Shown here: piece after piece, positions 7,312 through 42,751 of the stretch
How the letters are laid out: each line of letters begins with the position of its first letter
Position numbering within the stretch: the first letter of the stretch is position 1
Assembly (NCBI GenBank): GCA_002403075.1
Contig: DHHB01000082.1
Location: forward strand, 32,213 to 96,212
Source of the DNA: a bacterium UBP1_UBA4783
GTDB lineage: Bacteria > Krumholzibacteriota > Krumholzibacteriia > Krumholzibacteriales > Krumholzibacteriaceae
Length of the DNA: 64,000 bases
Direction of reading: 5' to 3'
Made by a program: the position numbers and the translations under genes
Notes under the pieces: model-generated
Databases searched by the model: none
What the model was told of the DNA's origin: nothing
The model's input: only the letters and a program-made list of their open reading frames with translations

Positions 7312-7500
7312 TCAGGTGGGGCCGCCCGACGATCCGCCGCCGCAGCCCTCGCACCCCCCGCAGGATCCGGCGATCGCGGAGATGAGCTTCTCGAGGTCGG
7401 CCGAGCCGCAGGAGGGGCAGACGACCTTCTGGGACGCCCCCCTGACGAGCTCTTCGAAAAGCTCGCCGCATTTCCCGCATCGATATTCGAATATCGGCAT
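7312..7500 (-). CDS. FmdB-family zinc-ribbon protein.
   Basis: MPIFEYRCGKCG...CPSCGS plus a C-terminal Cys/Gly-rich tail. The start is placed at MPIFEY inside ORF 7312..7617. Confidence 0.6.
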   Translation of the reverse strand: MPIFEYRCGKCGELFEELVRGASQKVVCPSCGSADLEKLISAIAGSCGGCEGCGGGSSGGPT

Positions 7501-7613
7501 GGTCGTCACCGCTGTTCGTTCGCGCTCCGGTCCGCGTCCTCGCGCGGTTCGGCGGTCGCCTCGCGCTGCGTTTTCTTCTTCGATCGGTCCCCGATCGAGC
7601 ATGCGGAGGACAT

Positions 7614-7703
7614 TCACGTGGGAACGCCGAGGCGGGGGAGGATGAAGAACATCAGAACAAACCAGATCGCGACAAACACGAGCAGCTTCAGCATGTCGTT
7701 CAT
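7614..7703 (-). CDS. Possible 29-aa single-pass membrane microprotein.
   Basis: MNDMLKLLVFVAIWFVLMFFILPRLGVPT is a hydrophobic helix lying between the ArsR and zinc-ribbon genes on the same strand. Confidence 0.25.
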   Translation of the reverse strand: MNDMLKLLVFVAIWFVLMFFILPRLGVPT

Positions 7704-8077
7704 CCCCCGTTTCGCCGTGACGTTCGTCCGGCCGGTGCGCCGGGCGGGGCGCTCCGGCGCGATCTCTCCGGCTCCATCGTCGCGCAGATCATGTCGCATA
7801 TCTTCTCCGGCAGACGGCTGCGAAGCCGGTAGCGCACATTGCGACGGTCCCGCCGCGACGCCACGAGCCCCTCGTCGCGGAGAACGCGAAGGTGTTTCGA
7901 GACGTTCGCCTGGGCGAGCCCCGTACCGTCGACGAGCTCCGTGACGCTTCTCTCGCCGTCGCAGAGGCAGCTCAGCACCGCGAGACGCGAAGCGTCCGCC
8001 ATCGCCTTGAGCCGTTTCGCGACGAGCTCGAGGACGGGCGCGTCGTTCCTTCGCAGCATTCGTCCCGCCTCTTTCAT
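7700..8077 (-). CDS. ArsR/SmtB-family transcriptional regulator.
   Basis: Winged HTH pattern ...RLAVLSCLCDGERSVTELVDGTGLAQANVSKHLRVLRDEGLV.... Confidence 0.7.
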   Translation of the reverse strand: MKEAGRMLRRNDAPVLELVAKRLKAMADASRLAVLSCLCDGERSVTELVDGTGLAQANVSKHLRVLRDEGLVASRRDRRNVRYRLRSRLPEKICDMICATMEPERSRRSAPPGAPAGRTSRRNGG

Positions 8078-8261: not shown

Positions 8262-10223
8262 ATGACGAGACGAGCGACGATTGCAGCCGCCACGCTGACC
8301 GCGGCCGTTACGGTCTTCGGGTGCGTCGCCGCCGCCGCGGGGGCGGAGGCGCCGCCGTTCGCCTTGAGGACGCTCGACGGGAGCGAGGCGGTCGAATCGA
8401 GCGCCCTCTTCGCCGAATACGGACACGTCTTTCTCGTGTTCTGGAGCGGGGGGTGTCCCCACTGCGTCGAGGCGCTCCGCGGGGCGCAGGCGTTTTACCG
8501 GCGATACGGAGGGCCTGACGTCGCGGTTGCGGGCGTCAACGCGGACGAGGGGGATGTATTGGCGTTGCGGCGGACGATCGAGACGAACGGGATCGCGTTT
8601 CGGCAGCTCCGCGATCCCGGAGGGATCGTGTCGGGGTCGTACGGCGTTCCGTTCGAGACGCTCGTGATCGTGCATGTCGCGGGCGGGACCGTCGCGGGGA
8701 CGCGCATCGATCCGGGAGGGGCCATCGACGGGGCGATGGAGGAGATGCTCCTCGGGGACGCGGCGCCGTCCCCGGACGCGCCCGAAACCACAGGAACCGG
8801 GGCCGCGGCGGCAACCGAAATCGCAGAAGAGAACGGCAAGGTTGTCTTCGGCTCGTCGATCCGCGGATGGTCGCGGATCCGGTTTCTCGATATCGATTCG
8901 CGCGGCGAGGAAGCCGCCGGGCTCTACGGCGAGCCGGTGCGGCCCGGCGGCCGGGTCGATTACCGTGTCGAAATCGAGGCCTCAAAACGCGTCGCGGCGC
9001 ATCTGCGCGCCGGCGCGCTCCTGCGGATAAGCAACGAGGGCGAGAGAGTGCTCGAGTCGGGGCCGAAGTATCTCGGCTCGCCGTTGGGGAGCGCCTTCGC
9101 GGAGATCGACGCGGCCGCGTTCACGTTCAGGCTCGGCTATTACTCGATATACATGACTCCCCTCACGCTCATGCGCTGGGATTGGGACGACAACCCGCGG
9201 GTCGGGGGCGACGCGGGATGCGGATGCGGCGCCTCGGCGGGGACGCTCCTCGTCGAGAGCCTCGACGATCTCGCGCCCGAACTCACCTTCGAGGGTGCGC
9301 TCGCGGGGTACGCGTTTTCGGGCGGGGAGATTCGGGCCTTTTACGCCATTCCGCGTCGAGCTCGGGAGACGCCCCGAGGCGCGTGGATAACGGGAGCGGA
9401 GGAGCGGGCGCGATACTCCCTCGAGATGTTCGGCGCCGAATGGCGCTGGCAGCGAGTCTCGCGCTTTTCCGGAGAAGCGTGGAAGCTCGGCGCGCGCTAC
9501 GTCGGAAGCCGCGAGCTCCGGCACAGCGTCGATTTCGTGGAGCTCGGCTACCCCGCGTACGATCCGTGGTGGGAATCGGGCATCGCGACCGTTTCGTTCG
9601 AAGCTCCCCTCGCCGGTTTCGTCCGGGCCCGGGCCGAAGGCGTCGTGTGGAACAGGGCGACCCAATACGGCCGCGGAGCTTCGGGGGACACGATCGCCTT
9701 CCGCGACGACGGCCGCGCCGGCGTCGCCGGCATCGTATTCGACGGACCGCGCGGCGCCTCGCTCACGATCGATTACCTGCTGCTCGATCCCGGTTTCTTC
9801 GCGCCCTTCGCGGCCCTTTCGTACGAGCCGAACCGGGAAGGGTATCGGGCGTCGGCGCGCGCGCCCCTCGCGCGCTCGAAGGTCGACGCCGATCTCTTCT
9901 ACAAACGCGTGCGCGAGCACACGCCGCTCTTCGGAGCCGAGCGGGCCGAAATAGAAACCGCGGGCATCTCGATCACCGGGGATCTCGGCGGCGGGTTCGG
10001 CGCGACGGCGGGCTGGATCGAGGAGAGCGACGAACGCGGCGGCGCGGTTTTTCCCTATAGCCTGTCGCGGCGGGCCGTCGAGGCGGGGCTGCAGTTCGGT
10101 TTCGCGAAGAGCGGCGTCGTCGAGCTGCGCTACAACCGCGTTCGAAGTGAAGAGTCCTCGCCGTCCGCGTCCTCGCGCGCGACGGCCGACCTGTACGCCC
10201 TCTACACGACGATCCGTTTCTGA
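8262..10223 (+). CDS. Secreted thioredoxin-like (TlpA/redoxin, CxxC) domain fused to a ~450-aa C-terminal domain ending in an aromatic residue, i.e. beta-barrel-like.
   Basis: Signal peptide, then WSGGCPHC redox motif in a TlpA-like N-domain. The C-terminal region is Gly/aromatic-rich and ends ...LYALYTTIRF. RBS GGGAGG lies 11 nt upstream. Confidence 0.6.
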   Translation: MTRRATIAAATLTAAVTVFGCVAAAAGAEAPPFALRTLDGSEAVESSALFAEYGHVFLVFWSGGCPHCVEALRGAQAFYRRYGGPDVAVAGVNADEGDVLALRRTIETNGIAFRQLRDPGGIVSGSYGVPFETLVIVHVAGGTVAGTRIDPGGAIDGAMEEMLLGDAAPSPDAPETTGTGAAAATEIAEENGKVVFGSSIRGWSRIRFLDIDSRGEEAAGLYGEPVRPGGRVDYRVEIEASKRVAAHLRAGALLRISNEGERVLESGPKYLGSPLGSAFAEIDAAAFTFRLGYYSIYMTPLTLMRWDWDDNPRVGGDAGCGCGASAGTLLVESLDDLAPELTFEGALAGYAFSGGEIRAFYAIPRRARETPRGAWITGAEERARYSLEMFGAEWRWQRVSRFSGEAWKLGARYVGSRELRHSVDFVELGYPAYDPWWESGIATVSFEAPLAGFVRARAEGVVWNRATQYGRGASGDTIAFRDDGRAGVAGIVFDGPRGASLTIDYLLLDPGFFAPFAALSYEPNREGYRASARAPLARSKVDADLFYKRVREHTPLFGAERAEIETAGISITGDLGGGFGATAGWIEESDERGGAVFPYSLSRRAVEAGLQFGFAKSGVVELRYNRVRSEESSPSASSRATADLYALYTTIRF

Positions 10224-10272
10224 GGTGCGCGCGGAGACGGGACGGCTCGGCGCTCGGGGGGCCGCGGCCTCG

Positions 10273-10857
10273 TCACCGGTAGAGGCTCTTGATCATTCCC
10301 CAGGTGAAGCACTCCGCCGCGATCACCGAATCGAGCTTGAGGTAATCGGCCCAGAAAGCTCCCGCGATCGGGGAGCCGGAAACGTACTCGAGCCGCAGCG
10401 TGCACGAGCTTCCGTATATCAGCAGGGGGCTGCTCCCCGCGGCGTTTATAACCCGTCCACACACGGTGTAATCTCCGGTTCCGGCGAAGGTGAACGCGAT
10501 GGTTTGGAGCCCCGTGTCCTCGAGGTCGCTGTACGAGAGATGCATCGTGTAGGTGACGCCGATCTCCCCCCAACATGCGAGGGTGGCGGCGTAGGTGCCG
10601 AAGCTCGACATCGCGAAGTCGTATTCGACCCACTCTCCCGGCGCGCCGAGCCCATGAAGCCTCGTGTCCACCTTGCGGATGGGATCGAAGTCGACGTCGC
10701 GACAGCGGGAAAAATTCTCGGCCTCGAGCGTGACGCTGACGGCGCCGGCATCGGCCGGTATCGCGCAGAGACCCGCGACGGCCGCGAGAGCGGCGGCGAC
10801 GGCGAGCGTCACACGGCGCGCGCGCCGCCGCGGGCGTATGCCGTTTCTCGATTCCAT
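10273..10857 (-). CDS. Secreted beta-sandwich protein, CBM6/35-like or galactose-binding-like, paralog A. Possible Tat-type signal RRRARR.
   Basis: Signal peptide, then ...TLEAENF...GEWVEYDF...FWADYLKLDSV, a carbohydrate-binding-module-like pattern. It has the same length and pattern as the adjacent paralog. Confidence 0.5.
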   Translation of the reverse strand: MESRNGIRPRRRARRVTLAVAAALAAVAGLCAIPADAGAVSVTLEAENFSRCRDVDFDPIRKVDTRLHGLGAPGEWVEYDFAMSSFGTYAATLACWGEIGVTYTMHLSYSDLEDTGLQTIAFTFAGTGDYTVCGRVINAAGSSPLLIYGSSCTLRLEYVSGSPIAGAFWADYLKLDSVIAAECFTWGMIKSLYR

Positions 10858-10894
10858 GATCGCGTCGAACGAAAGCCGGCGTATCGCGGCCTCG

Positions 10895-11413
10895 TCACCG
10901 GTAGAGGTTCTTGATCGTTCCCCAGGAGTGCGATTCGGCTGCGATCGTCGATTTGAATTCGATGTAATCGGCCCAGAACTGCCCGCCTGAGATATACGTG
11001 AGCCTCGCGACGACCGGGCTTCCGTACATTTCGACGGCGCCGCTCCCGGCGGCGTACACCTCGGTGCCTCAATGGTTGCAATCGCCCTTGCCGGTGAACG
11101 AGAAGTAGATCGTCTGGTTTCCGATCACCGATCCGTCGTAGACGGTGAGGCTGAGGGAGTACGGCATGTTGAGCTCGCCCCAGCAGAGCATCAACACCTC
11201 GTAGACGCCGAAGTCGCCCGTCGTAAATGTATACTGCGTCCATTCTCCCGCGGCGCCGAGGCCATAGAGCCTGCCGCCGATCGAGCGGATGACGTCCCAA
11301 TCGACGTTGTGGCTGCTCGAGTACGTTTCCGCTTGGACGGTGATCTTGACGGCCTGCGCGGCTTCGGGGCGGCAGGCGAGGATCAGAACGAGCATGGCGG
11401 CGATCGCTTTCAC
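10895..11413 (-). pseudogene. Paralog B of the secreted beta-sandwich protein, interrupted by a single in-frame TGA (complement of 11069-11071) that aligns exactly with a Cys of paralog A. It is either a nonsense-mutated pseudogene or a selenoprotein with a CxxU motif.
   Basis: Translation continues in the same frame past TGA to ...FWADYIEFKSTIAAESHSWGTIKNLYR*, which aligns end to end with paralog A. Local context is GDCNH-TGA-GTEVY in B versus GDYTVCGRVIN in A. Confidence 0.5.
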
Positions 11414-11560
11414 ACGGCATCACGCTCCACGAACCTCGATCCGTCGGATCGAAGCCGGCGAAGTCCTCATCTTTATTGTATCGGGCGCTGAGCGGGGAGT
11501 CAATGGGATCCCTCATCTCGCTCATCGTCGCGCGCGCGGCGTTCCCCGCGGCCGCGGACG

Positions 11561-24479: not shown

Positions 24480-24986
24480 TCACGGACCGACGTTCATGAG
24501 GCGCTCGCCCCGCAGGAAATCGTCCGTGTTGTAATCCTCGGTTATCTCGAGCGCGCGGAACTCCGCCTCGAGGATCGAATAGTGGCTACGCTCCATGCTC
24601 GCGAGGTACTCGAGCATCGAACGGCTGCTCTGGTCCCGCGTTTTTCCGGCGAGTCCCCCGTAGAACTCCTCCGACTTCTTTTCCGCCTCCATGGCCGCGG
24701 CGAAATACTCCTTGAGCGTCGCGTCGCGCTCGAGAACGTCCGACACGCTCGGCACGAGCGATTTCGGCGGCAGGCTGAGATCGACTCCCGGGAAACGCTT
24801 CCGGTAGGCCTCGGTGAGGATCTTCTCGTGGTTCTTCTCCTGATCGATGAGAAAGTCGACCTTCGTGCGCAGATCCGGATTTTTCGCCTTTTCCTTTATG
24901 CGATGGTAGAGCTTGATCGCCTCGATCTCGGACTTGATGGCGATCCCGAGGACCTCGAGGGTCGTGAGATCTCGTTCGCGGGTCAT
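24480..24986 (-). CDS. Rubrerythrin/ferritin-like diiron-domain protein.
   Basis: Two E-x-x-H four-helix-bundle pairs (EIEAIKLY...EKNHEKIL ; EAEKKSEEFY...MERSHYSIL). Confidence 0.6.
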   Translation of the reverse strand: MTRERDLTTLEVLGIAIKSEIEAIKLYHRIKEKAKNPDLRTKVDFLIDQEKNHEKILTEAYRKRFPGVDLSLPPKSLVPSVSDVLERDATLKEYFAAAMEAEKKSEEFYGGLAGKTRDQSSRSMLEYLASMERSHYSILEAEFRALEITEDYNTDDFLRGERLMNVGP

Positions 24987-25165: not shown

Positions 25166-25218
25166 CCGCGGAGAACCGGCGCGCCGACCGCATGCCCGTT
25201 CGCTCAAGGAGGATCGCG

Positions 25219-25740
25219 GTGGAAAACACGAAGAGGCTCGAAGCGCTCAGGATCGCGCTCGCGAACGAGGAGAAGGAGCGCGATTTCTATCTCGCCCACG
25301 CGAAGCGCACGAAGGATCCGCTCGGGAAGCAGATGTTCGAATCGATCGCGGCCGACGAAGAGGAGCACCGCAAGCGGCTCGTCGATCTCCACGCGAAGCT
25401 CGAGGAGCGGAAAAAATGGCCCGACGGCTTCTCCCTCGACGTTTCGACGCGCGTCACGGCGGCCCTCAACCGCCTCAGCAAGGAGGCGAGCGCCGCTCCC
25501 GAAAGCGACGACGACGATCTCGCGGCGGTCAAGACCGCGATCGAGTTCGAGACGAAGGGCGAGGCGTTCTACGCCCGCCTCGCGGACGAGGCCAAGGACA
25601 AGCCGGAGAAGCGCTTTTTCTCCCTCCTCGCCTCGATGGAGCGGGAGCACAGACTGTCGCTCGAGGACACCTTCGAGTATTTCACCGATCCGCAAAGCTG
25701 GATGGAGAGGAAGGGCGGGCGCCATCTCGACGGCGCGTGA
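25219..25740 (+). CDS. Second rubrerythrin/ferritin-like protein, divergent from the first.
   Basis: GTG start 6 nt after AAGGAGGA. Motifs EKERDFY...EEEHRKRL and EFETKGEAFY...MEREHRLSL. Confidence 0.6.
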   Translation: MENTKRLEALRIALANEEKERDFYLAHAKRTKDPLGKQMFESIAADEEEHRKRLVDLHAKLEERKKWPDGFSLDVSTRVTAALNRLSKEASAAPESDDDDLAAVKTAIEFETKGEAFYARLADEAKDKPEKRFFSLLASMEREHRLSLEDTFEYFTDPQSWMERKGGRHLDGA

Positions 25741-25761
25741 TCGCCGCCCGGGGCGGCGGCG

Positions 25762-26511
25762 CTAGAGGGTGATGCCGCCGTCCGCGACGACGGTCTGCCC
25801 CTGAATCCAGGACGCCTCGTCCGAGAGAAGAAAGACGGCGACGGCGGCGATCTCCTCGGGCCTCGCGAGCCGGTGCGTCGGCGTGCGATCCTTCCAGGCC
25901 TCGACGAGCGTTTCCTTGTCCGGGAAGTAGTCGAGCGCCGCGGTGTCGACGGGTCCTCCCGAGACCGCGTTCACCCTGACGCCGCGCGGCGCGAGCTCCT
26001 TCGCGAAGTAGCGGACGAGGGTTTCGAGCGCCGCCTTGCTCGCGCCGACCGCCGCGTACCCCGGAAGACACGAGAAACTCCCGATCGAAGACACGGCCAC
26101 GGCCCGTCCGCCCGCTTCGGGGAAAAGCTTCGACGCCTCCTGCATGCCGAGCAGAAACGCCCGCGCGTTCGCGTTGAGGGCGAGGTCCCAGCCGAACCGG
26201 CCGATCCTCGCCGCCGGGCCGAGAACGCCCGAGACCGCGTTCGACACGAAGAGATCGAGTCCGCCGAAGGCCTCTCCGACCGCGGCGAAAAGGCCGCGGA
26301 CCTCCTTCGGCTCCGAGACGTCGGCCTTGATCCGCACGGCCCTGCGGCCGAGACGCTCGACGGCGAGCGCGGTCTCGGCGGCCGCCTCTTCGTTCTTCAC
26401 GTAGCTCAGGGCGACGTCGGCGCCGCGTTCGGCGAGACGCAGAACGATCGCTCGGCCGATGCCGCGCGATCCGCCGGTCACGAGGGCGCGTTTTCCCGTG
26501 AAGTCCGCCAT
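25762..26511 (-). CDS. Short-chain dehydrogenase/reductase (SDR).
   Basis: TGGSRGIGRAI Rossmann motif and SDR catalytic tetrad pattern (N...S...Y...K). The start is placed at MADFTGKRALVTGG. Confidence 0.75.
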   Translation of the reverse strand: MADFTGKRALVTGGSRGIGRAIVLRLAERGADVALSYVKNEEAAAETALAVERLGRRAVRIKADVSEPKEVRGLFAAVGEAFGGLDLFVSNAVSGVLGPAARIGRFGWDLALNANARAFLLGMQEASKLFPEAGGRAVAVSSIGSFSCLPGYAAVGASKAALETLVRYFAKELAPRGVRVNAVSGGPVDTAALDYFPDKETLVEAWKDRTPTHRLARPEEIAAVAVFLLSDEASWIQGQTVVADGGITL

Positions 26512-35584: not shown

Positions 35585-38500
35585 ATGAAGACGATAGCAT
35601 TCGCAACGATGGTCGTTCTGGGGATCCTCCTTTTCGGATCCCTCGGTCTTTCAGGCGCCGGCCGGGACCCGCTCCGCATGCCGAACGATTCGGACGGAGA
35701 CGGCGTGCCCGATCCGCTCGACCTCTGTCCGCAGGAGAACGCCTCGTTCTTCGACCGCGACGGAGACGGGTGCATCGACGACCCGGTCAGCGCGCGCCAT
35801 ACGGAATACTGGGCGCCGGATCAGATGCCGTTTACGTACTATATCCACGAGGGTGGCGCGCCCGGCGTCGGGGACGGCAGCGATTTCGCCGCGATCCAGA
35901 ACGGGATGAGCGCGTGGGCCGCCATCCCGGGCGTCGATTTCTCGGTGAGCTACGGCGGAACGACGTCGCAGGCCGTGGCGGCGGCGCTCGACCAGGTGAA
36001 CCTCGTCACCTTCAGCGACAATCAGTACCAGTTCGGGGCGGCGGTGCTCGCCGTGGGCATCTCGACCTCCTTTACGGTCGACTCCGTGTACAACGGGACG
36101 CAGTATCGTCCCGGACAGATCGTCGACGCCGATATGATATTCAATCCGCTCAAGAAATGGCGGACGCCGACCGCAGGGACGCAGGGCACGGACATCCGGA
36201 GTGTGGCGACCCATGAGGCGGCGCATCTTTTCGGCATCGCCCACTCGCCGGTGCGGACCTCGACGATGTTCTACGTGCTCCCGCCGGGAACGGAGGCGGC
36301 GAGCCTCGAGACGGAAGACGAGCTCGTATTTTTCAAGGCGTATCCCGAGGCCGGCGCCCTCGCCGCCGCGAGCCGTCTCGACGGATCCGTTCTCGACGGA
36401 TCCACGAACGCTCCCGTGCCGGGAGCGATCGTGTGCGCGATCGACGCCGCGTCGGGGGATACCGTCGCGGCGGACTACACGATGCCGGACGGCAGCTTCT
36501 GCTTCGTCGGGCTCCCGGACGGACAGTACTACGTCGCGATCCACGCCCTCGACGGGAGCTCGACCATCGGATACCTCAAGCCTGCCTACATCAATAGCCT
36601 CGTCGACACGACGGCCGTGACGGCTTTCGTCGCCGAATACTGGGATCTCGCCGAGTCGAATACGGACGACGCCGCGGCGAAGGACGTCGTTACGATCGGC
36701 CCCGCCGCGCCGCCGGGAGCCCTTGCGATCGTCACCAACATCGACAGCACGCCCCCGGAAGTCGTCTCGATCACTCCGGCGGCGAGCATGGACTCGGTCA
36801 GCATCGACGCCGCCGTCGTCATCACGTTCTCGGAGCCGATCGATTACACGACCATCAGCGGCAACTTCAGGATCCTCGATGCCGCGGCCGGAACGTTCAT
36901 CTCGGGTTCCGCGACCGTTCTCCGGGACGATTCGGTCATCGCGTTCACTCCCTACGGTCTCTTCCAGTTCGAAACGGCGTACGAGCTGTCGCTCGAAACG
37001 GGGCTCACCGACAAGAACGGCGTCGCGCTCGCGACGGAGTTCCAATCGAATTTCGTCACGGAGCCCCTGCCGCCGCTCGCCGTCATGAACCTATCGCCGA
37101 GCAAGGGGGTCGGCGGGTCGATCGTCATCGTGAACGGAGCGGGATTCTCGTGGACGGCGTCGGCGAACACGGTGCGCTTCGGATCGATGGAGGCGCCCGT
37201 GCTCGACGCCTTCCCAAACCGGCTCATCGTGATGGTTCCGGCCGGCGCCTCGACCGGTCTCGTGACGGTAGAGACGGGGGGCGAAACGAGCAACGGGCTC
37301 ACCTTCACCGTGCTCTCTGCTTTCGAAATCGCCCGAGGCTACGAGACCGGCGTGACCGAGCTCGGCGCCCTTCCGCGGGCGATCACGGTCCTGCCGGACG
37401 GCGGCTGGGCGTACGTCGCGACGGATATCGGTGCCGCGGCCGTCATCGTCGATCCCGGCCGCTCCGGATATCTCACCGTGACGTCGATACCGATGACGGG
37501 GGGTTTCGTCGCAGTCGAGGCGACGCCCGACGGCAAGCGCGTGTACGCCGCGAACGCGGTCATGGGAAGGCTCTGCACGATCGACACCGATCCGTCGCAC
37601 GGACTCCTCTTCAACACGATCATCGCGGAACATTCGGTCGGGTGCAGCCCGATCGGAATCGCCGTCGATCCGAACGGCGGCAGGGCGTACGTCGCGACGG
37701 ACGTCGGCGGCGTGCAGGTATGGGACATTCGATCCGGGAGCCTCACGTACGAGCGGCACATCGGCGAGCTCGCGCCGGGAGAATCCGGTCTTCGGGGCGC
37801 CCTCGCCGTCGATCCCGCGGGAAGCCGCCTGCTCGCGCCGACGGACCGCGGCACGCTGCTCGTGTTCGATCTCGGCGGGGATTCGCTCCTCGCGGAGATC
37901 CCCGTTCTCGGCGATCCGCAGGACGTCGTCGTCGATCCGGCCGGACAGCGCGCCTACGTGAGCGACGGGACGGGCAACGTCACCGTCGTATCCATCACGG
38001 GTCTTTTCAGGGTGCAGGATATCAATACGGGCGGATCGCTTCGCGGGATGACGCTCACGCCGGGAGGCGGCTACCTCTACGCGACGAACCGGCAGCTCGA
38101 TCTCATCGACGTGATCGATCTCAAGGAAGAGAGCCCGACCTTCCGGAGCGTCGCCGCGACGATCGCGATCGGCTCGAATCCGGTCGACGTCGCCCGATCG
38201 CCCGACGGGTTCTACGCGTTCTCCGTCGTGCAGGGCACTCGGCAGCTCATCGTCACGACGATCGGGCTCGGTCCGACGCTCGCGAGCCTTTCGAGGCGCG
38301 CGGGACCGCCGGGCGCGAAACTCGTGCTCGCGGGAACCGGTTTCGGCGTGAATATCGAAGAGCTCTTCGTCGAGTTCCCGAACGCGCTCGATCCGGCGCA
38401 TCCGATTCGAGTCATCCCGGAGTACAGCTCCGGCACGGCGATAGCGGCGGCGGTTCCCCGGGGAGCGGGGAGCGGGCCCGTGAAGGTCGTGCGAGTCCCG

Positions 38501-41500
38501 TGGAACGCCGTCCCGGGGAGCGAAGCGCACGCAACCGCGCAAGAGGAGGGCGAGCAGTTCTCCAACGCTCTCTATTTCCAGGTTCTCGACGGTTCATCCG
38601 GGACGGGAACGATGCGCCACGCCACGGGCATCGGAATGCCGCCGCTCTTCGAGCTCACGAACGAGCTCGCCTTTTCCCCGACGGGGGATTTCGTTCTCGT
38701 CGGCGGTTACGACGGGAAAGCCGCGATCCTCGACACCGATCCCGAAAGCGCCACCTTCAATCAGTTCCTGAGAACGATGGACGTATCGTCGGAGCTGCTC
38801 GAAGACATGACGCTGACGCCGGACGGAGAACGCGCCTATTTCGCCGTCCGCGGCCTCGATAGCATCCCGTGTTTCAACATGAACCGTCATTCGCCGGGAT
38901 TCGGCGACTTCATGGGCGCAATATGGGTGCCGACGATTTATATCAACAACCGCATCGCCGTGAGCCCGAGCGGCGAGCTGCTTCTCGTCACGGCGGGCGA
39001 TTCGCTCTGCGCAGTCGACATCGTGCCGGGGTCCACGAGGGAGAACGAGATCATCGGCGTCGCGATGAACCATGCGATGCCGGACGCGCTCGGATTCCAT
39101 CCCGGCGGTAGGCACGCCTATTTCGCGACCGCCGCGAACGTTCTCGGTGTCCTCGATATCGATCCGCTGAGCCCGCGGTACCTCGAAGTCATCGGCTCGG
39201 TGACGATGCCGGATACGCTGACGATTCGGCGGTTCGTGGGGTCGTTTTCATTCACCCCCGACGGCGCCCGATGCCTCGTCGTCACCGTCGCGCCGGAGCT
39301 GGCGCAGGAGGCCTGGTGTCTCTTCGTGCTCGATACGTCGGATCCCGGCGCGCCGGTGATCGAGCAGCGGATCGATTTTCCGTGCCAAAACAACATTCGG
39401 GCCATGGGAGCGGTCGACGTATCTCCCCAGGGAGACCGCGCCATCGCGGGGCTGGGTTTCTGCGCGTACTATACGGTGGATCTCCTTTCGGAGCCGATGT
39501 CCATCATCGATACGCACTTTGACTGGAGCAACATCTCCACGATGAACATGGATTTCACGCCGGACGGCTCTCGCCTCTACGCCACCGCGCCCTACGCGAC
39601 CGAAGACAGCATTTTCGTGTACGACTTCAGCAACGCCGCCGACATCGTGGCGGTTTCCGGCGACATGCAGAGCGGCGTCATCGGACAACCGCTTCCGGCG
39701 CCGCTCAGGGTGTTCGTGAGCGAGCCCGGTCTCGTGCCCGTTCCGGTGCCCGGAGTGCTCGTGAACTACCGAGTCATAGACGGCGGAGGCCATTTCACGC
39801 AGAGCGGCCTCGTGACGCAGACCGTCGCGACGGACCAAGCGGGATTCGCCGAGCTCGATTGGACTCTCGGGGACGAGATCGGCGAGCAAACGCAGATCGT
39901 CGAGGTGAGGGCGATCGGGCTCATGGGCTCCCCGCTCTATTTCGTGGCTCATTCGTATCCCGATCCCGAATCCCTGCCGCTCACGCTCTCGCAAACGGCG
40001 CCGCTCGACGGGAGCGGCACGGTGAGCGTCACGAGCGCCGTTCAGGCGGTCTTCAGCAAGGCGGTGCAGCAGGCGTCGATCTCGTCGTCGACCTTTTCCC
40101 TCCGTCGGACGGGAGCGGCGGAGGGCGTTCCCGCGAACACGGGCTTCGCCGACGGCGACCGACGGGTGGCACTCATTCCGCTCGCCGCGCTCGAATACGG
40201 CACGACCTACGTTCTCGAGGCCACGGGCGGCGTCCTCGGCGTGCTCGGCGATTCCCTCCAGAATCCCGATTCGAGCCGTTTCACGACCGCCCCGAAACCG
40301 CCGCTCGTCCTCGCCTCGGTGACGCCGCCGGCGGCGTCCGTCGGCGCGTGCCTCATCCTCTCGGGGCAGGGCTTCGATCCGTCGCCGGCGAACAACACCG
40401 TGCTCTTCAACGGGGCCGCCGTCCCGCCGACGTCGGCCGGGGTCGATTATCTGAGCCTCAAGGTGCCTCTCGCCGCGATTACGGGGCCGATCCGCGTCGT
40501 GTCGGGGGGCGATACGACGAACGCCGCGCCCTTTGTCGTGCTCGTGCCGAGCATGTCGCCCGTCGACGAGGTCGTCGCGACCGTCGGCACCGGCAACTCG
40601 ACGAACAGCGTCGCCGTGACGCCTGACGGCGCGATCGCGTACTCCGTGAGCCCGGACGGCGACATCGTCATCCCGATCGACATCGGCGGCCTCGCGACCT
40701 ATCCGAGCATCTCGGTCGGGGACAATCCCGTCGCGATCGCGATCCATCCCGAAGGCACGTACGCGTACGTCGTCAATTTCGGCTCGGGCAGCGTTTCCAT
40801 CATCGTCGTCGATCCCGATTCGGCGGCCTTCAACACCGTTGTTCAGACGATCCTCGTCGGCACGAATCCGCTCGACGTCGCGGTGAACCCGGACGGCGAC
40901 CGCGTCTACGTCGCGAACGCCGGCTCTTCGAGCCTGAGCGTGATCGACGGCGACAATTCGAGCGCGACGCATCACCAGGTGCTCGCGACGATCTCCACCG
41001 GCTCCTCGGCTAAGAGCGTGGCGGTGACGCCGGACGGCGCCGTCGTGTACGTCGGCACGGGCGCCGGCTACTCGATCGTCGACGCCGAAACGAACGCCGT
41101 CGTCGGCGCCGTCTCGACCGGCTCCTCGACGAAGAGCGTCGCGGTGACGCCTGACGGCGCGCTCCTCATCATCCTCACGGCGGGAGGCGATATCCTCGTC
41201 GTCGACGTGCAGGAGGGAAGTCCGACGGAAAACCAGGTCCTCGCGACGATCTCCGCGGGCACGACGACGAAGAGCGTGGCGGTTAGTCCGGACGGTGCGC
41301 TCCTCTACATCATCCTCGAAGACAGCGACGAGGTGATCGTCTACGCGCTCACGATCGTCGCGGGCGCCTCCGTCTTCGAGCCGGGCGTCATTATCCCGCC
41401 GACTCGCGTTGAGGTGTCGCCGATCGATACGATACCGGCCGGAAGCGATCCGGCGTATATCGCCTTTGATCCGTCCGGCTCGGGGCTTGCGATCATTTGT

Positions 41501-42751
41501 AGCGCGGGAGACAGGACGGTCATCATTCTCAACGCCTCGAGCGTGCCGATCGGGCCGCTCTCGGCGGCGGTCACGGTCACGCCGCATACCCTCAATCTCC
41601 GGTCGAACGGCCGGTGGGTGAGCGGGCGCATCGAGCTGCCCGCGGCCTTCTTCCCCGAGGAGATCGCGCTCGCGAGCGTTCTGCTCCAGAACGCGATCCC
41701 CGCTGATCCGGAACGCTGGACGATTGAGGATTGCGACGCGGACGGCATCCGCGAGCTCGTCTGCAAGTTCGACCGCGCCTTGTTCCAGGCGATGCTGCCG
41801 CAGGGTGAATACGTGCCGGTGACGATCACGGGGAACGTGAGAAACCGCACCTTCGAGGGACTCGATACGATCCGCACGATCCGCCCGACGGTGAAGCATC
41901 CGACGGGCTGCGTAGTCACCATGGGCGAGATCACGACGATCCTCTGGACCTCGCCCGCGGGAATCCGCGTCGACGCGGTCAACGTGCACTGGTCCCCCGA
42001 TGACGGCGAAACGTGGTTCCCCGTCGCCGAGGCCGTGCCGGACGAGGGCGGCGTTCCCTGGCGCGCGCCGGAAACAGAGCACGCGAACTGCCGGGTGCTC
42101 GTCACGCTCCTCCGTGACGGCGAGATCCTCGGGATGGGCATCAGCCCCGATCCCTTCACGGTAAGCGTGCCGGTCGCCGTGACCGTCGCGGGTTTTTCGG
42201 CCGTTATGCGCGGAGAGGAAGCCGCGATCCGATGGAGCACGCAGACGGAATCCGGCGTCGACGGATTCAACGTGCTGCGCGCCGATCGCGAGGACGGTCT
42301 CTTCGAGAGGATCGGCGGGGAAACGGTTCCGGCCCGCGGCGGCGCGGACGGCGGAGAGTACGAGGTTCGGGACACTGAGGTCTCGCTCAACCGGACCTAC
42401 TACTACGAGCTCGAGCGCGTGTCCCGCGACGGAAGCCGGGTCATCGCGGGTCCATTCCGTCTCGACGTGCGCGCGCCGTTCGATCTCGCGCAGAACGTGC
42501 CGAACCCGTTCAATCCGACGACGCTCATCAAGTTCACGATCGCGGAGGATTGCCGCGTGACCCTCGTCGTCTACGACGCGAGCGGACGCAGGGTTCGCTC
42601 TCTCGTCGCGCGGGATCTCCCCGCCGCGTTTTATCGCATCGAGTGGGACGGCCGCAACGACGAAGGGCGTCGCCTGTCGAGCGGCGTGTATTTCTACCGT
42701 CTGAACGCGGGACGGTTCACGAAGACGCGAAAGCTCGTGCTTCTCAGGTGA
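35585..42751 (+). CDS. Giant (2388 aa) secreted multidomain metzincin-type metalloprotease with Ig-like and beta-propeller repeat domains and a T9SS-type C-terminal sorting domain.
   Basis: Signal peptide and thrombospondin-3-like Ca-binding repeats DSDGDGVPD/DRDGDGCID. Metzincin motif HEAAHLFGIAH with Met-turn STMFY. SbsA/Big-like and IPT-like segments, then many YVTN-type beta-propeller repeats (VAVTPDGA..YV.N..S.SVID). The C-terminus NVPNPFNPTTLIKF...VYDASGRRV...WDGRNDEGRRLSSGVYFYRL matches the Por-secretion tail. RBS AAAGGAGGG is upstream. Confidence 0.8.
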   Translation: MKTIAFATMVVLGILLFGSLGLSGAGRDPLRMPNDSDGDGVPDPLDLCPQENASFFDRDGDGCIDDPVSARHTEYWAPDQMPFTYYIHEGGAPGVGDGSDFAAIQNGMSAWAAIPGVDFSVSYGGTTSQAVAAALDQVNLVTFSDNQYQFGAAVLAVGISTSFTVDSVYNGTQYRPGQIVDADMIFNPLKKWRTPTAGTQGTDIRSVATHEAAHLFGIAHSPVRTSTMFYVLPPGTEAASLETEDELVFFKAYPEAGALAAASRLDGSVLDGSTNAPVPGAIVCAIDAASGDTVAADYTMPDGSFCFVGLPDGQYYVAIHALDGSSTIGYLKPAYINSLVDTTAVTAFVAEYWDLAESNTDDAAAKDVVTIGPAAPPGALAIVTNIDSTPPEVVSITPAASMDSVSIDAAVVITFSEPIDYTTISGNFRILDAAAGTFISGSATVLRDDSVIAFTPYGLFQFETAYELSLETGLTDKNGVALATEFQSNFVTEPLPPLAVMNLSPSKGVGGSIVIVNGAGFSWTASANTVRFGSMEAPVLDAFPNRLIVMVPAGASTGLVTVETGGETSNGLTFTVLSAFEIARGYETGVTELGALPRAITVLPDGGWAYVATDIGAAAVIVDPGRSGYLTVTSIPMTGGFVAVEATPDGKRVYAANAVMGRLCTIDTDPSHGLLFNTIIAEHSVGCSPIGIAVDPNGGRAYVATDVGGVQVWDIRSGSLTYERHIGELAPGESGLRGALAVDPAGSRLLAPTDRGTLLVFDLGGDSLLAEIPVLGDPQDVVVDPAGQRAYVSDGTGNVTVVSITGLFRVQDINTGGSLRGMTLTPGGGYLYATNRQLDLIDVIDLKEESPTFRSVAATIAIGSNPVDVARSPDGFYAFSVVQGTRQLIVTTIGLGPTLASLSRRAGPPGAKLVLAGTGFGVNIEELFVEFPNALDPAHPIRVIPEYSSGTAIAAAVPRGAGSGPVKVVRVPWNAVPGSEAHATAQEEGEQFSNALYFQVLDGSSGTGTMRHATGIGMPPLFELTNELAFSPTGDFVLVGGYDGKAAILDTDPESATFNQFLRTMDVSSELLEDMTLTPDGERAYFAVRGLDSIPCFNMNRHSPGFGDFMGAIWVPTIYINNRIAVSPSGELLLVTAGDSLCAVDIVPGSTRENEIIGVAMNHAMPDALGFHPGGRHAYFATAANVLGVLDIDPLSPRYLEVIGSVTMPDTLTIRRFVGSFSFTPDGARCLVVTVAPELAQEAWCLFVLDTSDPGAPVIEQRIDFPCQNNIRAMGAVDVSPQGDRAIAGLGFCAYYTVDLLSEPMSIIDTHFDWSNISTMNMDFTPDGSRLYATAPYATEDSIFVYDFSNAADIVAVSGDMQSGVIGQPLPAPLRVFVSEPGLVPVPVPGVLVNYRVIDGGGHFTQSGLVTQTVATDQAGFAELDWTLGDEIGEQTQIVEVRAIGLMGSPLYFVAHSYPDPESLPLTLSQTAPLDGSGTVSVTSAVQAVFSKAVQQASISSSTFSLRRTGAAEGVPANTGFADGDRRVALIPLAALEYGTTYVLEATGGVLGVLGDSLQNPDSSRFTTAPKPPLVLASVTPPAASVGACLILSGQGFDPSPANNTVLFNGAAVPPTSAGVDYLSLKVPLAAITGPIRVVSGGDTTNAAPFVVLVPSMSPVDEVVATVGTGNSTNSVAVTPDGAIAYSVSPDGDIVIPIDIGGLATYPSISVGDNPVAIAIHPEGTYAYVVNFGSGSVSIIVVDPDSAAFNTVVQTILVGTNPLDVAVNPDGDRVYVANAGSSSLSVIDGDNSSATHHQVLATISTGSSAKSVAVTPDGAVVYVGTGAGYSIVDAETNAVVGAVSTGSSTKSVAVTPDGALLIILTAGGDILVVDVQEGSPTENQVLATISAGTTTKSVAVSPDGALLYIILEDSDEVIVYALTIVAGASVFEPGVIIPPTRVEVSPIDTIPAGSDPAYIAFDPSGSGLAIICSAGDRTVIILNASSVPIGPLSAAVTVTPHTLNLRSNGRWVSGRIELPAAFFPEEIALASVLLQNAIPADPERWTIEDCDADGIRELVCKFDRALFQAMLPQGEYVPVTITGNVRNRTFEGLDTIRTIRPTVKHPTGCVVTMGEITTILWTSPAGIRVDAVNVHWSPDDGETWFPVAEAVPDEGGVPWRAPETEHANCRVLVTLLRDGEILGMGISPDPFTVSVPVAVTVAGFSAVMRGEEAAIRWSTQTESGVDGFNVLRADREDGLFERIGGETVPARGGADGGEYEVRDTEVSLNRTYYYELERVSRDGSRVIAGPFRLDVRAPFDLAQNVPNPFNPTTLIKFTIAEDCRVTLVVYDASGRRVRSLVARDLPAAFYRIEWDGRNDEGRRLSSGVYFYRLNAGRFTKTRKLVLLR

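Follow-up and report, generated by a model that had tools for sequence, protein, structure and literature searches.

A 64,000-nucleotide stretch of contig DHHB01000082.1 from the bacterium UBP1_UBA4783 (hereafter, the window, meaning the whole stretch at its full length) contains a tandem pair of paralogous genes, A and B, the second of which carries an in-frame UGA, codon 115, that is very probably decoded as selenocysteine (Sec). The B family is probably a new family of selenoproteins, exported and with a fold similar to that of family 6 carbohydrate-binding modules (CBM6); decoding would follow the usual bacterial route, and the novelty lies in the protein family. The first-pass annotation of this DNA had weighed a selenoprotein against a simple C-to-A nonsense mutation, and the evidence comes down on the side of the selenoprotein: the codon is TGA in all lineages in which it was checked, full-length homologs contain Cys at this position, and a covarying hairpin follows the codon in the TGA forms only. 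The elements of the two genes are as follows.

10273-10857, minus strand: paralog A, the Cys form, an intact open reading frame (ORF) of 194 amino acids (aa)
10895-11413, minus strand: gene B, the selenoprotein candidate, 172 codons including one UGA, with a GTG start and a TGA terminal stop
11069-11071, minus strand: in-frame UGA of B, read here as selenocysteine U115 (TGA column in 12 of 12 lineages, Cys in 9 full-length homologs)
11078-11080, minus strand: Cys112 of B, the first residue of C-N-H-U, a clade-specific motif
10459-10461, minus strand: Cys133 of A (codon TGT), aligned with the TGA of B
11038-11054, minus strand: hairpin CGCCGC-CGGGA-GCGGCG with the loop at 11044-11048, -11.3 kcal/mol, covariation in 12 sequences
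11351-11413, minus strand: putative N-terminal signal peptide of B (MKAIAAMLVLILACRPEAAQA, AxA-type cleavage site), assigned by eye
11475-11503, minus strand: sigma-70-like promoter match TTGACT-17-TACAAT, about 60 nucleotides (nt) upstream of the B start, a consensus match only (10 of 12 positions)

Gene B reads VKAIAAMLVLILACRPEAAQA...FTGKGDCNH-TGA-GTEVYAAGSG...SWGTIKNLYR-TGA. With the TGA taken as Cys, A and B align with 46% identity over 165 residues (E 7e-52), which places the TGA opposite Cys133 of A, as the first-pass annotation had it. Its claim that the frame of B stays open for 57 codons past the TGA and matches A holds as well, given that these 57 residues, aligned alone, are 51% identical to the A C-terminus (E 1e-18); the DNA identity of the 3' ends, put there at about 85%, was measured at 81% over 94 nt. 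The duplication had also been called recent: paralog A is indeed restricted to the window and the loci L004, L005 and L001, but with the two copies at 46% protein identity the word "recent" is doubtful. Compared with the Sec form, the codon in A is TGT or TGC, the Cys of the CxxU motif is replaced by Tyr, and the hairpin is missing; A is a duplicate specific to this lineage, in which Sec gave way to Cys and the hairpin was lost. The stop regions of A and B (10262-10295 and 10884-10917, respectively) are identical in 33 of 34 nt, including 11 nt past the TGA, whereas the proteins are only about 46% identical; this near-identity could reflect local gene conversion or a common 3' element. A scan of the window detected no in-frame TGA other than that of B with a coding signature on both sides.

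Conservation of the TGA codon and of the frame beyond it

With B as the query, a word-indexed search of 5.8 billion proteins retrieved four matches (98, 89, 73 and 62% identity), each exactly 114 aa long, and in all four source contigs (L001-L004) the gene reads GDCNH-TGA-G and then continues as an open frame to ...LYR-stop. The same read-through architecture is present in two GTDB species representatives, the metagenome-assembled genome (MAG) DeMMO6_31 and UBP1_UBA4771. Among 1.84 billion cluster representatives, a HMMER profile search yielded 173 matches, 97 of which are proteins of 100-160 aa that cover only profile positions ~1-110/114; the search also returned about eight fragments of 46-57 aa that map to positions 116-169 and a handful of full-length proteins of 176-188 aa. 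The stop codon itself was checked in 12 lineages only. In the DNA of six distant truncated representatives (L007, L009, L010, L013, L014 and L015) and of L016, TGA occupies the same column, the next residue is G, S or T, and the C-terminal part is conserved and in frame. Two scans of JGI metagenome contigs, one with a protein pattern and one with a DNA pattern, gave no match.

Comparison of orthologs at the TGA column, which the first-pass annotation had listed among its checks, speaks for the Sec/Cys pattern. The internal stop is TGA in 12 of the 12 lineages, spanning 98% to ~30% identity, and the terminal stops are TGA, TAA or TAG; in a 17-sequence alignment, all nine natural full-length homologs (window A, P0005, P0006, P0010, P0016, P0041, P0088, P0107 and P0124) have Cys at this column. 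For divergent ortholog pairs, the ratio of nonsynonymous to synonymous substitution rates (dN/dS) is 0.29-0.42 after the TGA versus 0.14-0.29 before it. Past the TGA, synonymous divergence decreases, which is what an RNA element under constraint in this part of the gene would produce. The downstream motifs AAGSG, RLxY and SWGxIKxLYR are retained down to ~30% identity. Given the invariant TGA and the conserved downstream frame, neither a nonsense mutation nor a pseudogene nor an assembly error can account for the data. Reassignment of the TGA codon is ruled out, since TGA is the normal stop in 25 of the 36 window genes, and both A and B end in it.

So far, the family is found in MAGs labeled Latescibacterota and in unclassified relatives, mostly as Sec forms; it would comprise ~100 clusters at 50% identity, with about nine Sec forms per Cys form. 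In the public gene calls that we saw, the Sec forms appear as a 110-125-aa stub and a ~50-aa fragment, or else the second part is dropped. Because gene calls split these genes or drop parts of them, ~100 protein clusters would be wrong, and selenium use in Latescibacterota and uncultured relatives would be under-counted.

The hairpin downstream of the UGA

The hairpin noted in the first-pass annotation is present, although it is better drawn as CGCCGC-CGGGA-GCGGCG, and it begins 15 nt after the UGA rather than about 13; the distance between the UGA and the loop is 20 nt, and the hairpin sequence encodes A-A-G-S-G in B. The published limits for the bacterial selenocysteine insertion sequence (bSECIS) are a loop of 3-9 nt, an upper stem of 4-16 base pairs (bp), a G within the first two positions of the loop, a distance of 16-37 nt from the UGA to the apical loop, and a free energy no higher than -7.5 kcal/mol (PMC13188914 Fig. 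2). With its -11.3 kcal/mol, the window hairpin lies within all of these limits.

Across the 12 lineages, the loop is CGGGA in 11 and AGGUG in L014. The stem consists of 5-6 bp in most lineages and of 4 bp in L015, and L013 folds in a different register. In 10 lineages, the UGA and the loop are 20 nt apart; the spacing is 17 nt in L016, where a one-codon deletion brings the hairpin 3 nt nearer to the UGA, and 22 nt in the alternative fold of L013. In the 12-sequence alignment, 87.9% of the cells are paired; compensatory double changes occur in five of the six pairs (11 cells), and one-sided changes in none. The covariation score, which was also computed on a 10-sequence set, is 0.418, compared to 0.210 for shuffled alignments; none of 500 shuffles reached the observed score, and slid controls remained at or below 0.17. 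The hairpin does not form in the three Cys forms compared (window A, L001 A and L012). Codon choice in the loop region is skewed in the 12 lineages: the Gly in the loop is encoded by GGG in 11 of 12, and the following Ser by AGY, compared to 23% GGG among the Gly codons and 28% AGY among the Ser codons of the window genes.

A covariance model of the hairpin, run over 218 kb, produced only two extra matches, both of which were rejected as SECIS elements. The first, at 41547-41575 on the minus strand (GCCGC-CGAGA-GCGGC, 25.3 bits), lies antisense within a 2388-aa ORF and was judged a chance match. The second, at 25736-25764 on the plus strand (GCCGCC-CGGG-GCGGCGGC, 20.4 bits), has a spacing of 7 nt and is terminator-like; it begins at the TGA of a rubrerythrin-like ORF (25192-25740), between convergent genes, and the frame downstream of it is antisense to an SDR gene.

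Several observations weigh against Sec decoding or against the function that we propose for B below. The hairpin is short, and the need to encode the conserved A-A-G-S peptide also constrains part of its sequence. The energies of the 22-nt core are -7.4 kcal/mol in L006 and L009, -7.1 in L016 (fixed frame), -6.1 in L014 and -5.9 in L015, and 60-nt folds are no better than those of shuffled sequences (the DNA is 65-70% GC). No SECIS family of Rfam matched the window at gathering thresholds or the segment 10850-11150 at E <= 10, the only hits being tRNAs. For the window and L001 pair, the downstream dN/dS is ~1, on few changes. The genes selA, selB, selC and selD are absent from the 64-kb window and from the fetched loci; ARAGORN detected no tRNA-Sec in the window and seven loci, and a Pfam scan of the 36 window genes found no SelA, SelB or SelD, which says little for a 64-kb piece. 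Finally, the redox role and the partnership with a TlpA-like protein are drawn from gene neighborhood only. As to the machinery, two closed genomes, CP070677.1 and CP070727.1, carry family members, and selABD has been reported in the related candidate phylum KSB1 (PMC9012183).

One alternative is that the UGA is read through without Sec: a suppressor tRNA, or one that is near-cognate (for Trp, Cys or Arg), would decode it, with the hairpin stimulating read-through. The failure to observe Sec machinery in the window or the fetched loci, and the small size of a hairpin that matches no Rfam model, are compatible with this explanation. It nevertheless appears quite improbable, considering that Cys in every full-length homolog is the pattern expected of a Sec/Cys pair and that the hairpin falls within the bSECIS limits of loop size, G position and spacing. 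Furthermore, we know of no bacterial pattern of programmed read-through that is kept across some 100 clusters. Alternatively, the TGA could be a true stop that terminates a 114-residue protein, with the downstream part being either a small gene of its own or a remnant in decay. Gene callers annotate the gene in this manner in every database, and in the window a GTG codon lies four codons past the TGA; this GTG, however, is not conserved (GTA in L001 and GTC in L006), a stop here would split a single beta-sandwich domain, neither TAA nor TAG ever takes the place of the internal TGA, and the downstream frame and motifs persist down to ~30% identity, all of which makes this possibility highly improbable. 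An error of sequencing or assembly in the window contig, of negligible probability, is already refuted by the same TGA in independent assemblies from ENA, Logan, JGI, NCBI and GTDB.

Protein fold and the putative thioredoxin-like partner

The AlphaFold2 model of paralog A, built from a 117-row family alignment, has a mean predicted local distance difference test score (pLDDT) of 87.9 and consists of a beta-sandwich, after which comes a short C-terminal helix (WGxIKSLYR) modeled with less confidence. The top Foldseek matches of this model in the PDB are CBM6 (2CDP, E 7e-7), CBM36 and CBM35, with E-values of 7e-7 to 1e-4 and a target TM-score of ~0.7. As modeled, the protein is a CBM6/35/36-type beta-jelly roll, in agreement with the first-pass description of A and B as beta-sandwich modules of the CBM6/35 kind; at the sequence level, the Pfam CBM_6 model scores 15.8 bits, below the cut-off of 28.9, with the match confined to residues 27-65. 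Both A and B appear, on inspection of their N-termini, to carry signal peptides, and hydrophobic N-termini are kept across the B family.

In the A model, the Sec/Cys residue is located in a confidently modeled loop between strands 117-125 and 137-141. When multi-domain CBM6-like relatives are aligned to the family hidden Markov model, this loop reads TGGW or GTGxW, with Trp most often at the U/C column; the alignment of the loop is approximate, such that the Sec column is at or beside the Trp. In CBM6 modules, the TGGW Trp is an aromatic platform of the cleft-A binding site. The Sec most likely sits in the ligand-binding cleft, because in ordinary CBM6 modules the loop that corresponds to its own contains the Trp of TGGW, on which the sugar stacks. 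The motif of the B family is F-x-G-x-G-[YF]-G-U-G...A-[AT]-G-S-G. The CxxU signature emphasized in the first-pass annotation is present in B but is a feature of one clade rather than of the whole family: the 97 shortened representatives include 17 with CxxU, 4 with CxU and 76 without a Cys within four residues.

The protein ends in a conserved tail, SWGxIKxLY[RE] (10895-10930, minus strand, in the window), that in L015 is replaced by a type IX secretion system (T9SS) domain (FlgD_ig/Por_Secre_tail; 10361-10792). This domain fits an exported protein, and the replacement suggests that the tail is a separable module for sorting or anchoring. The short proteins P0068, P0081 and P0111 have the same SWGxIKxLY[RE] tail behind a truncated N-terminal domain.

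Two neighboring genes of the pair are of interest with respect to function.

8262-10223, plus strand: ResA/TlpA-like thioredoxin domain fused to a ~460-aa domain without a known family, 653 aa, the exported partner
7700-8077, minus strand: ArsR-family regulator beside the partner, in a neighborhood conserved in L001, L002 and L007

The thioredoxin-fold fusion that the first-pass annotation placed next to A and B is borne out by its N-terminal domain, which contains CPHC (8454-8465) and matches Pfam AhpC-TSA (2e-11) and Redoxin as well as the PDB structure of ResA (4nmu, 1.9e-7). Its C-terminal domain (8832-10223, plus strand, in the window; 989-2659 in L010; 7957-9945 in L012) has no match in Pfam, NCBIfam or the PDB. 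This domain includes the conserved sequence RWDWxDNPRxGGDAGCGCGA (GCGCG at 9216-9230; CGAC in L012) and terminates in ...YALYTTIRF, which looks like the end of an outer-membrane beta-barrel. An AlphaFold2 model of the 653-aa protein from the single sequence (pLDDT 32.5) is too low in confidence for use.

Homologs of the partner adjoin the family gene in L001, L002, L005, L006, L007/L008, L010 and L016 and, next to a Cys form, in L012. The relative orientation of the two genes varies: they are convergent in some loci, and in L012 they lie on the same strand, separated by 52 nt. In L009, a stand-alone AhpC/TSA-Redoxin gene of 165 aa, 106 nt upstream, takes the place of the fusion; the upstream gene in L013 was rejected as a partner homolog, being a membrane transporter. 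In L006 (10571-12114, MAG UBA4771), the partner gene is in two pieces, corresponding to residues 123-346 and 380-653, which suggests a frameshift or an assembly error.

The window genes are housekeeping ones, typical of an uncultured bacterium of the FCB group; close homologs carry the NCBI label 'Candidatus Latescibacterota bacterium'. Positions 1-20351 of L016, a 205-kb Logan contig, share their gene order with positions 1-22100 of the window over ~20 kb: FtsH, HPRT, TilS, KARI, GlnRS, the partner, the selenoprotein, an AspT-like permease, an NhaC-like antiporter, DUF362, arginase, deoxyhypusine synthase, ChlI and acyl-CoA dehydrogenase. Given that this order is kept even though the L016 selenoprotein is only ~40% identical, the locus is old and stable.

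Other genes of the window include an FmdB-family zinc-ribbon gene (Pfam Zn_ribbon_8; 7312-7617, minus strand), two genes from the partner and also found in L007; the window copy is all-Cys, and a UxxU selenoprotein form of the FmdB family is included in the 2026 catalogue (PMC13188914). A divergent pair of rubrerythrin-family genes occupies 24480-24986 (minus strand) and 25192-25740 (plus strand); in the second, the Pfam match is limited to the first half of the model. A secreted giant protein of 2388 aa (35585-42751, plus strand), with matrixin-like, Big_5, TIG, beta-propeller and C-terminal FlgD_ig domains, points to a repertoire of type IX secretion cargo in the source organism.

Proposed function and comparison with known systems

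Under the mechanism that we propose, SelB with Sec-tRNA(Sec) would bind the hairpin in the coding region (5-6 bp, loop CGGGA) and insert Sec at codon 115, and the signal peptide would direct export of the B product of ~150 residues. The selenol in the cleft would then serve as a redox or ligand-capturing center outside the cytoplasm, and the ResA/TlpA-like neighbor with its CPHC motif would keep the selenol reduced or recycle it, in a manner analogous to that of single-Cys peroxidases and other clients of TlpA. We put forward this specific pairing of B with the TlpA-like neighbor only tentatively. Binding of a metal or metalloid is a reasonable alternative function for B, because a neighboring gene encodes an ArsR-family regulator. 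The broader picture, an uncatalogued and diverse family in which the Trp of the CBM6 cleft is replaced by Sec, forming a selenoenzyme or ligand trap with a dedicated reductase and, in some lineages, type IX secretion, is likewise possible but falls short of being probable.

No precedent for the family was found in the sources consulted. Neither B, A, five Cys forms nor a Sec-form fragment has a match at E <= 1 in NCBIfam release 20, which includes curated selenoprotein models, and Table 1 of the 2026 selenoprotein catalogue (PMC13188914), with its 119 families and subfamilies, has no entry for this family. Literature searches found nothing comparable on CBM-type or secreted selenoproteins and nothing relevant on Sec use in Latescibacterota or Krumholzibacteriota. 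If the proposed function is correct, B would represent a new kind of extracytoplasmic selenoenzyme or a selenium-based ligand trap, and the family could be a signature selenoprotein of Latescibacterota-type bacteria. The combination of a secreted CBM fold, Sec in the cleft, in most cases no nearby resolving Cys, and a TlpA-like neighbor points to undescribed chemistry. The compact, covarying SECIS, with its CGGGA loop and 20-nt spacing, could seed searches for selenoproteins in related phyla.

In its coding features, the B family resembles the bacterial selenoproteins with a SECIS in the coding region (the Zhang and Gladyshev model, PMC13188914): an in-frame UGA is immediately followed by a small hairpin, and this hairpin is similar to the bSECIS in its 5-nt loop with G at position 2 and another G next to it, its 5-6-bp stem and its spacing of 17-20 nt. 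As in known bacterial selenoproteins, Cys homologs exist at the UGA column, and one clade has CxxU. In contrast, most of the catalogued selenoproteins are thioredoxin-fold proteins or cytoplasmic enzymes, whereas the B family is apparently an exported lectin-like jelly roll, and unlike the catalogued families, its Sec forms greatly outnumber the Cys forms.

With CBM6, CBM35 and CBM36 (PDB 2CDP, 1W0N and 2W1W), the B family shares the predicted jelly roll, and the N-terminal motifs E-A-E and G-L-D-x-x-G-E-W resemble the CBM6 profile. Unlike CBM6 modules, members of the B family are stand-alone proteins without an attached enzyme, carry G-[YF]-G-Sec at or beside the TGGW Trp, and have the distinct tail SWGxIKxLYR. 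The exported thiol:disulfide selenoproteins (DsbA-like, DsbG-like, UGC-containing TlpA and the thiol:disulfide interchange protein; PMC13188914) are comparable in their extracytoplasmic location and association with TlpA/ResA, a likeness that would extend to the probable selenol-based redox function of the B family. In those proteins, however, Sec is part of the CxxC site of a thioredoxin fold, whereas here the CPHC of the partner is ordinary, and the Sec belongs to a different protein, one without a thioredoxin fold. The envelope selenoproteins that lack a thioredoxin fold (the TonB-dependent receptor of the FCYXU type, DUF1573 and the outer-membrane GSU2204; PMC13188914) demonstrate that Sec is possible in beta-rich envelope proteins, but the B family, which has no Pfam or NCBIfam match to the models of these proteins, shows no sequence relationship to any of them.

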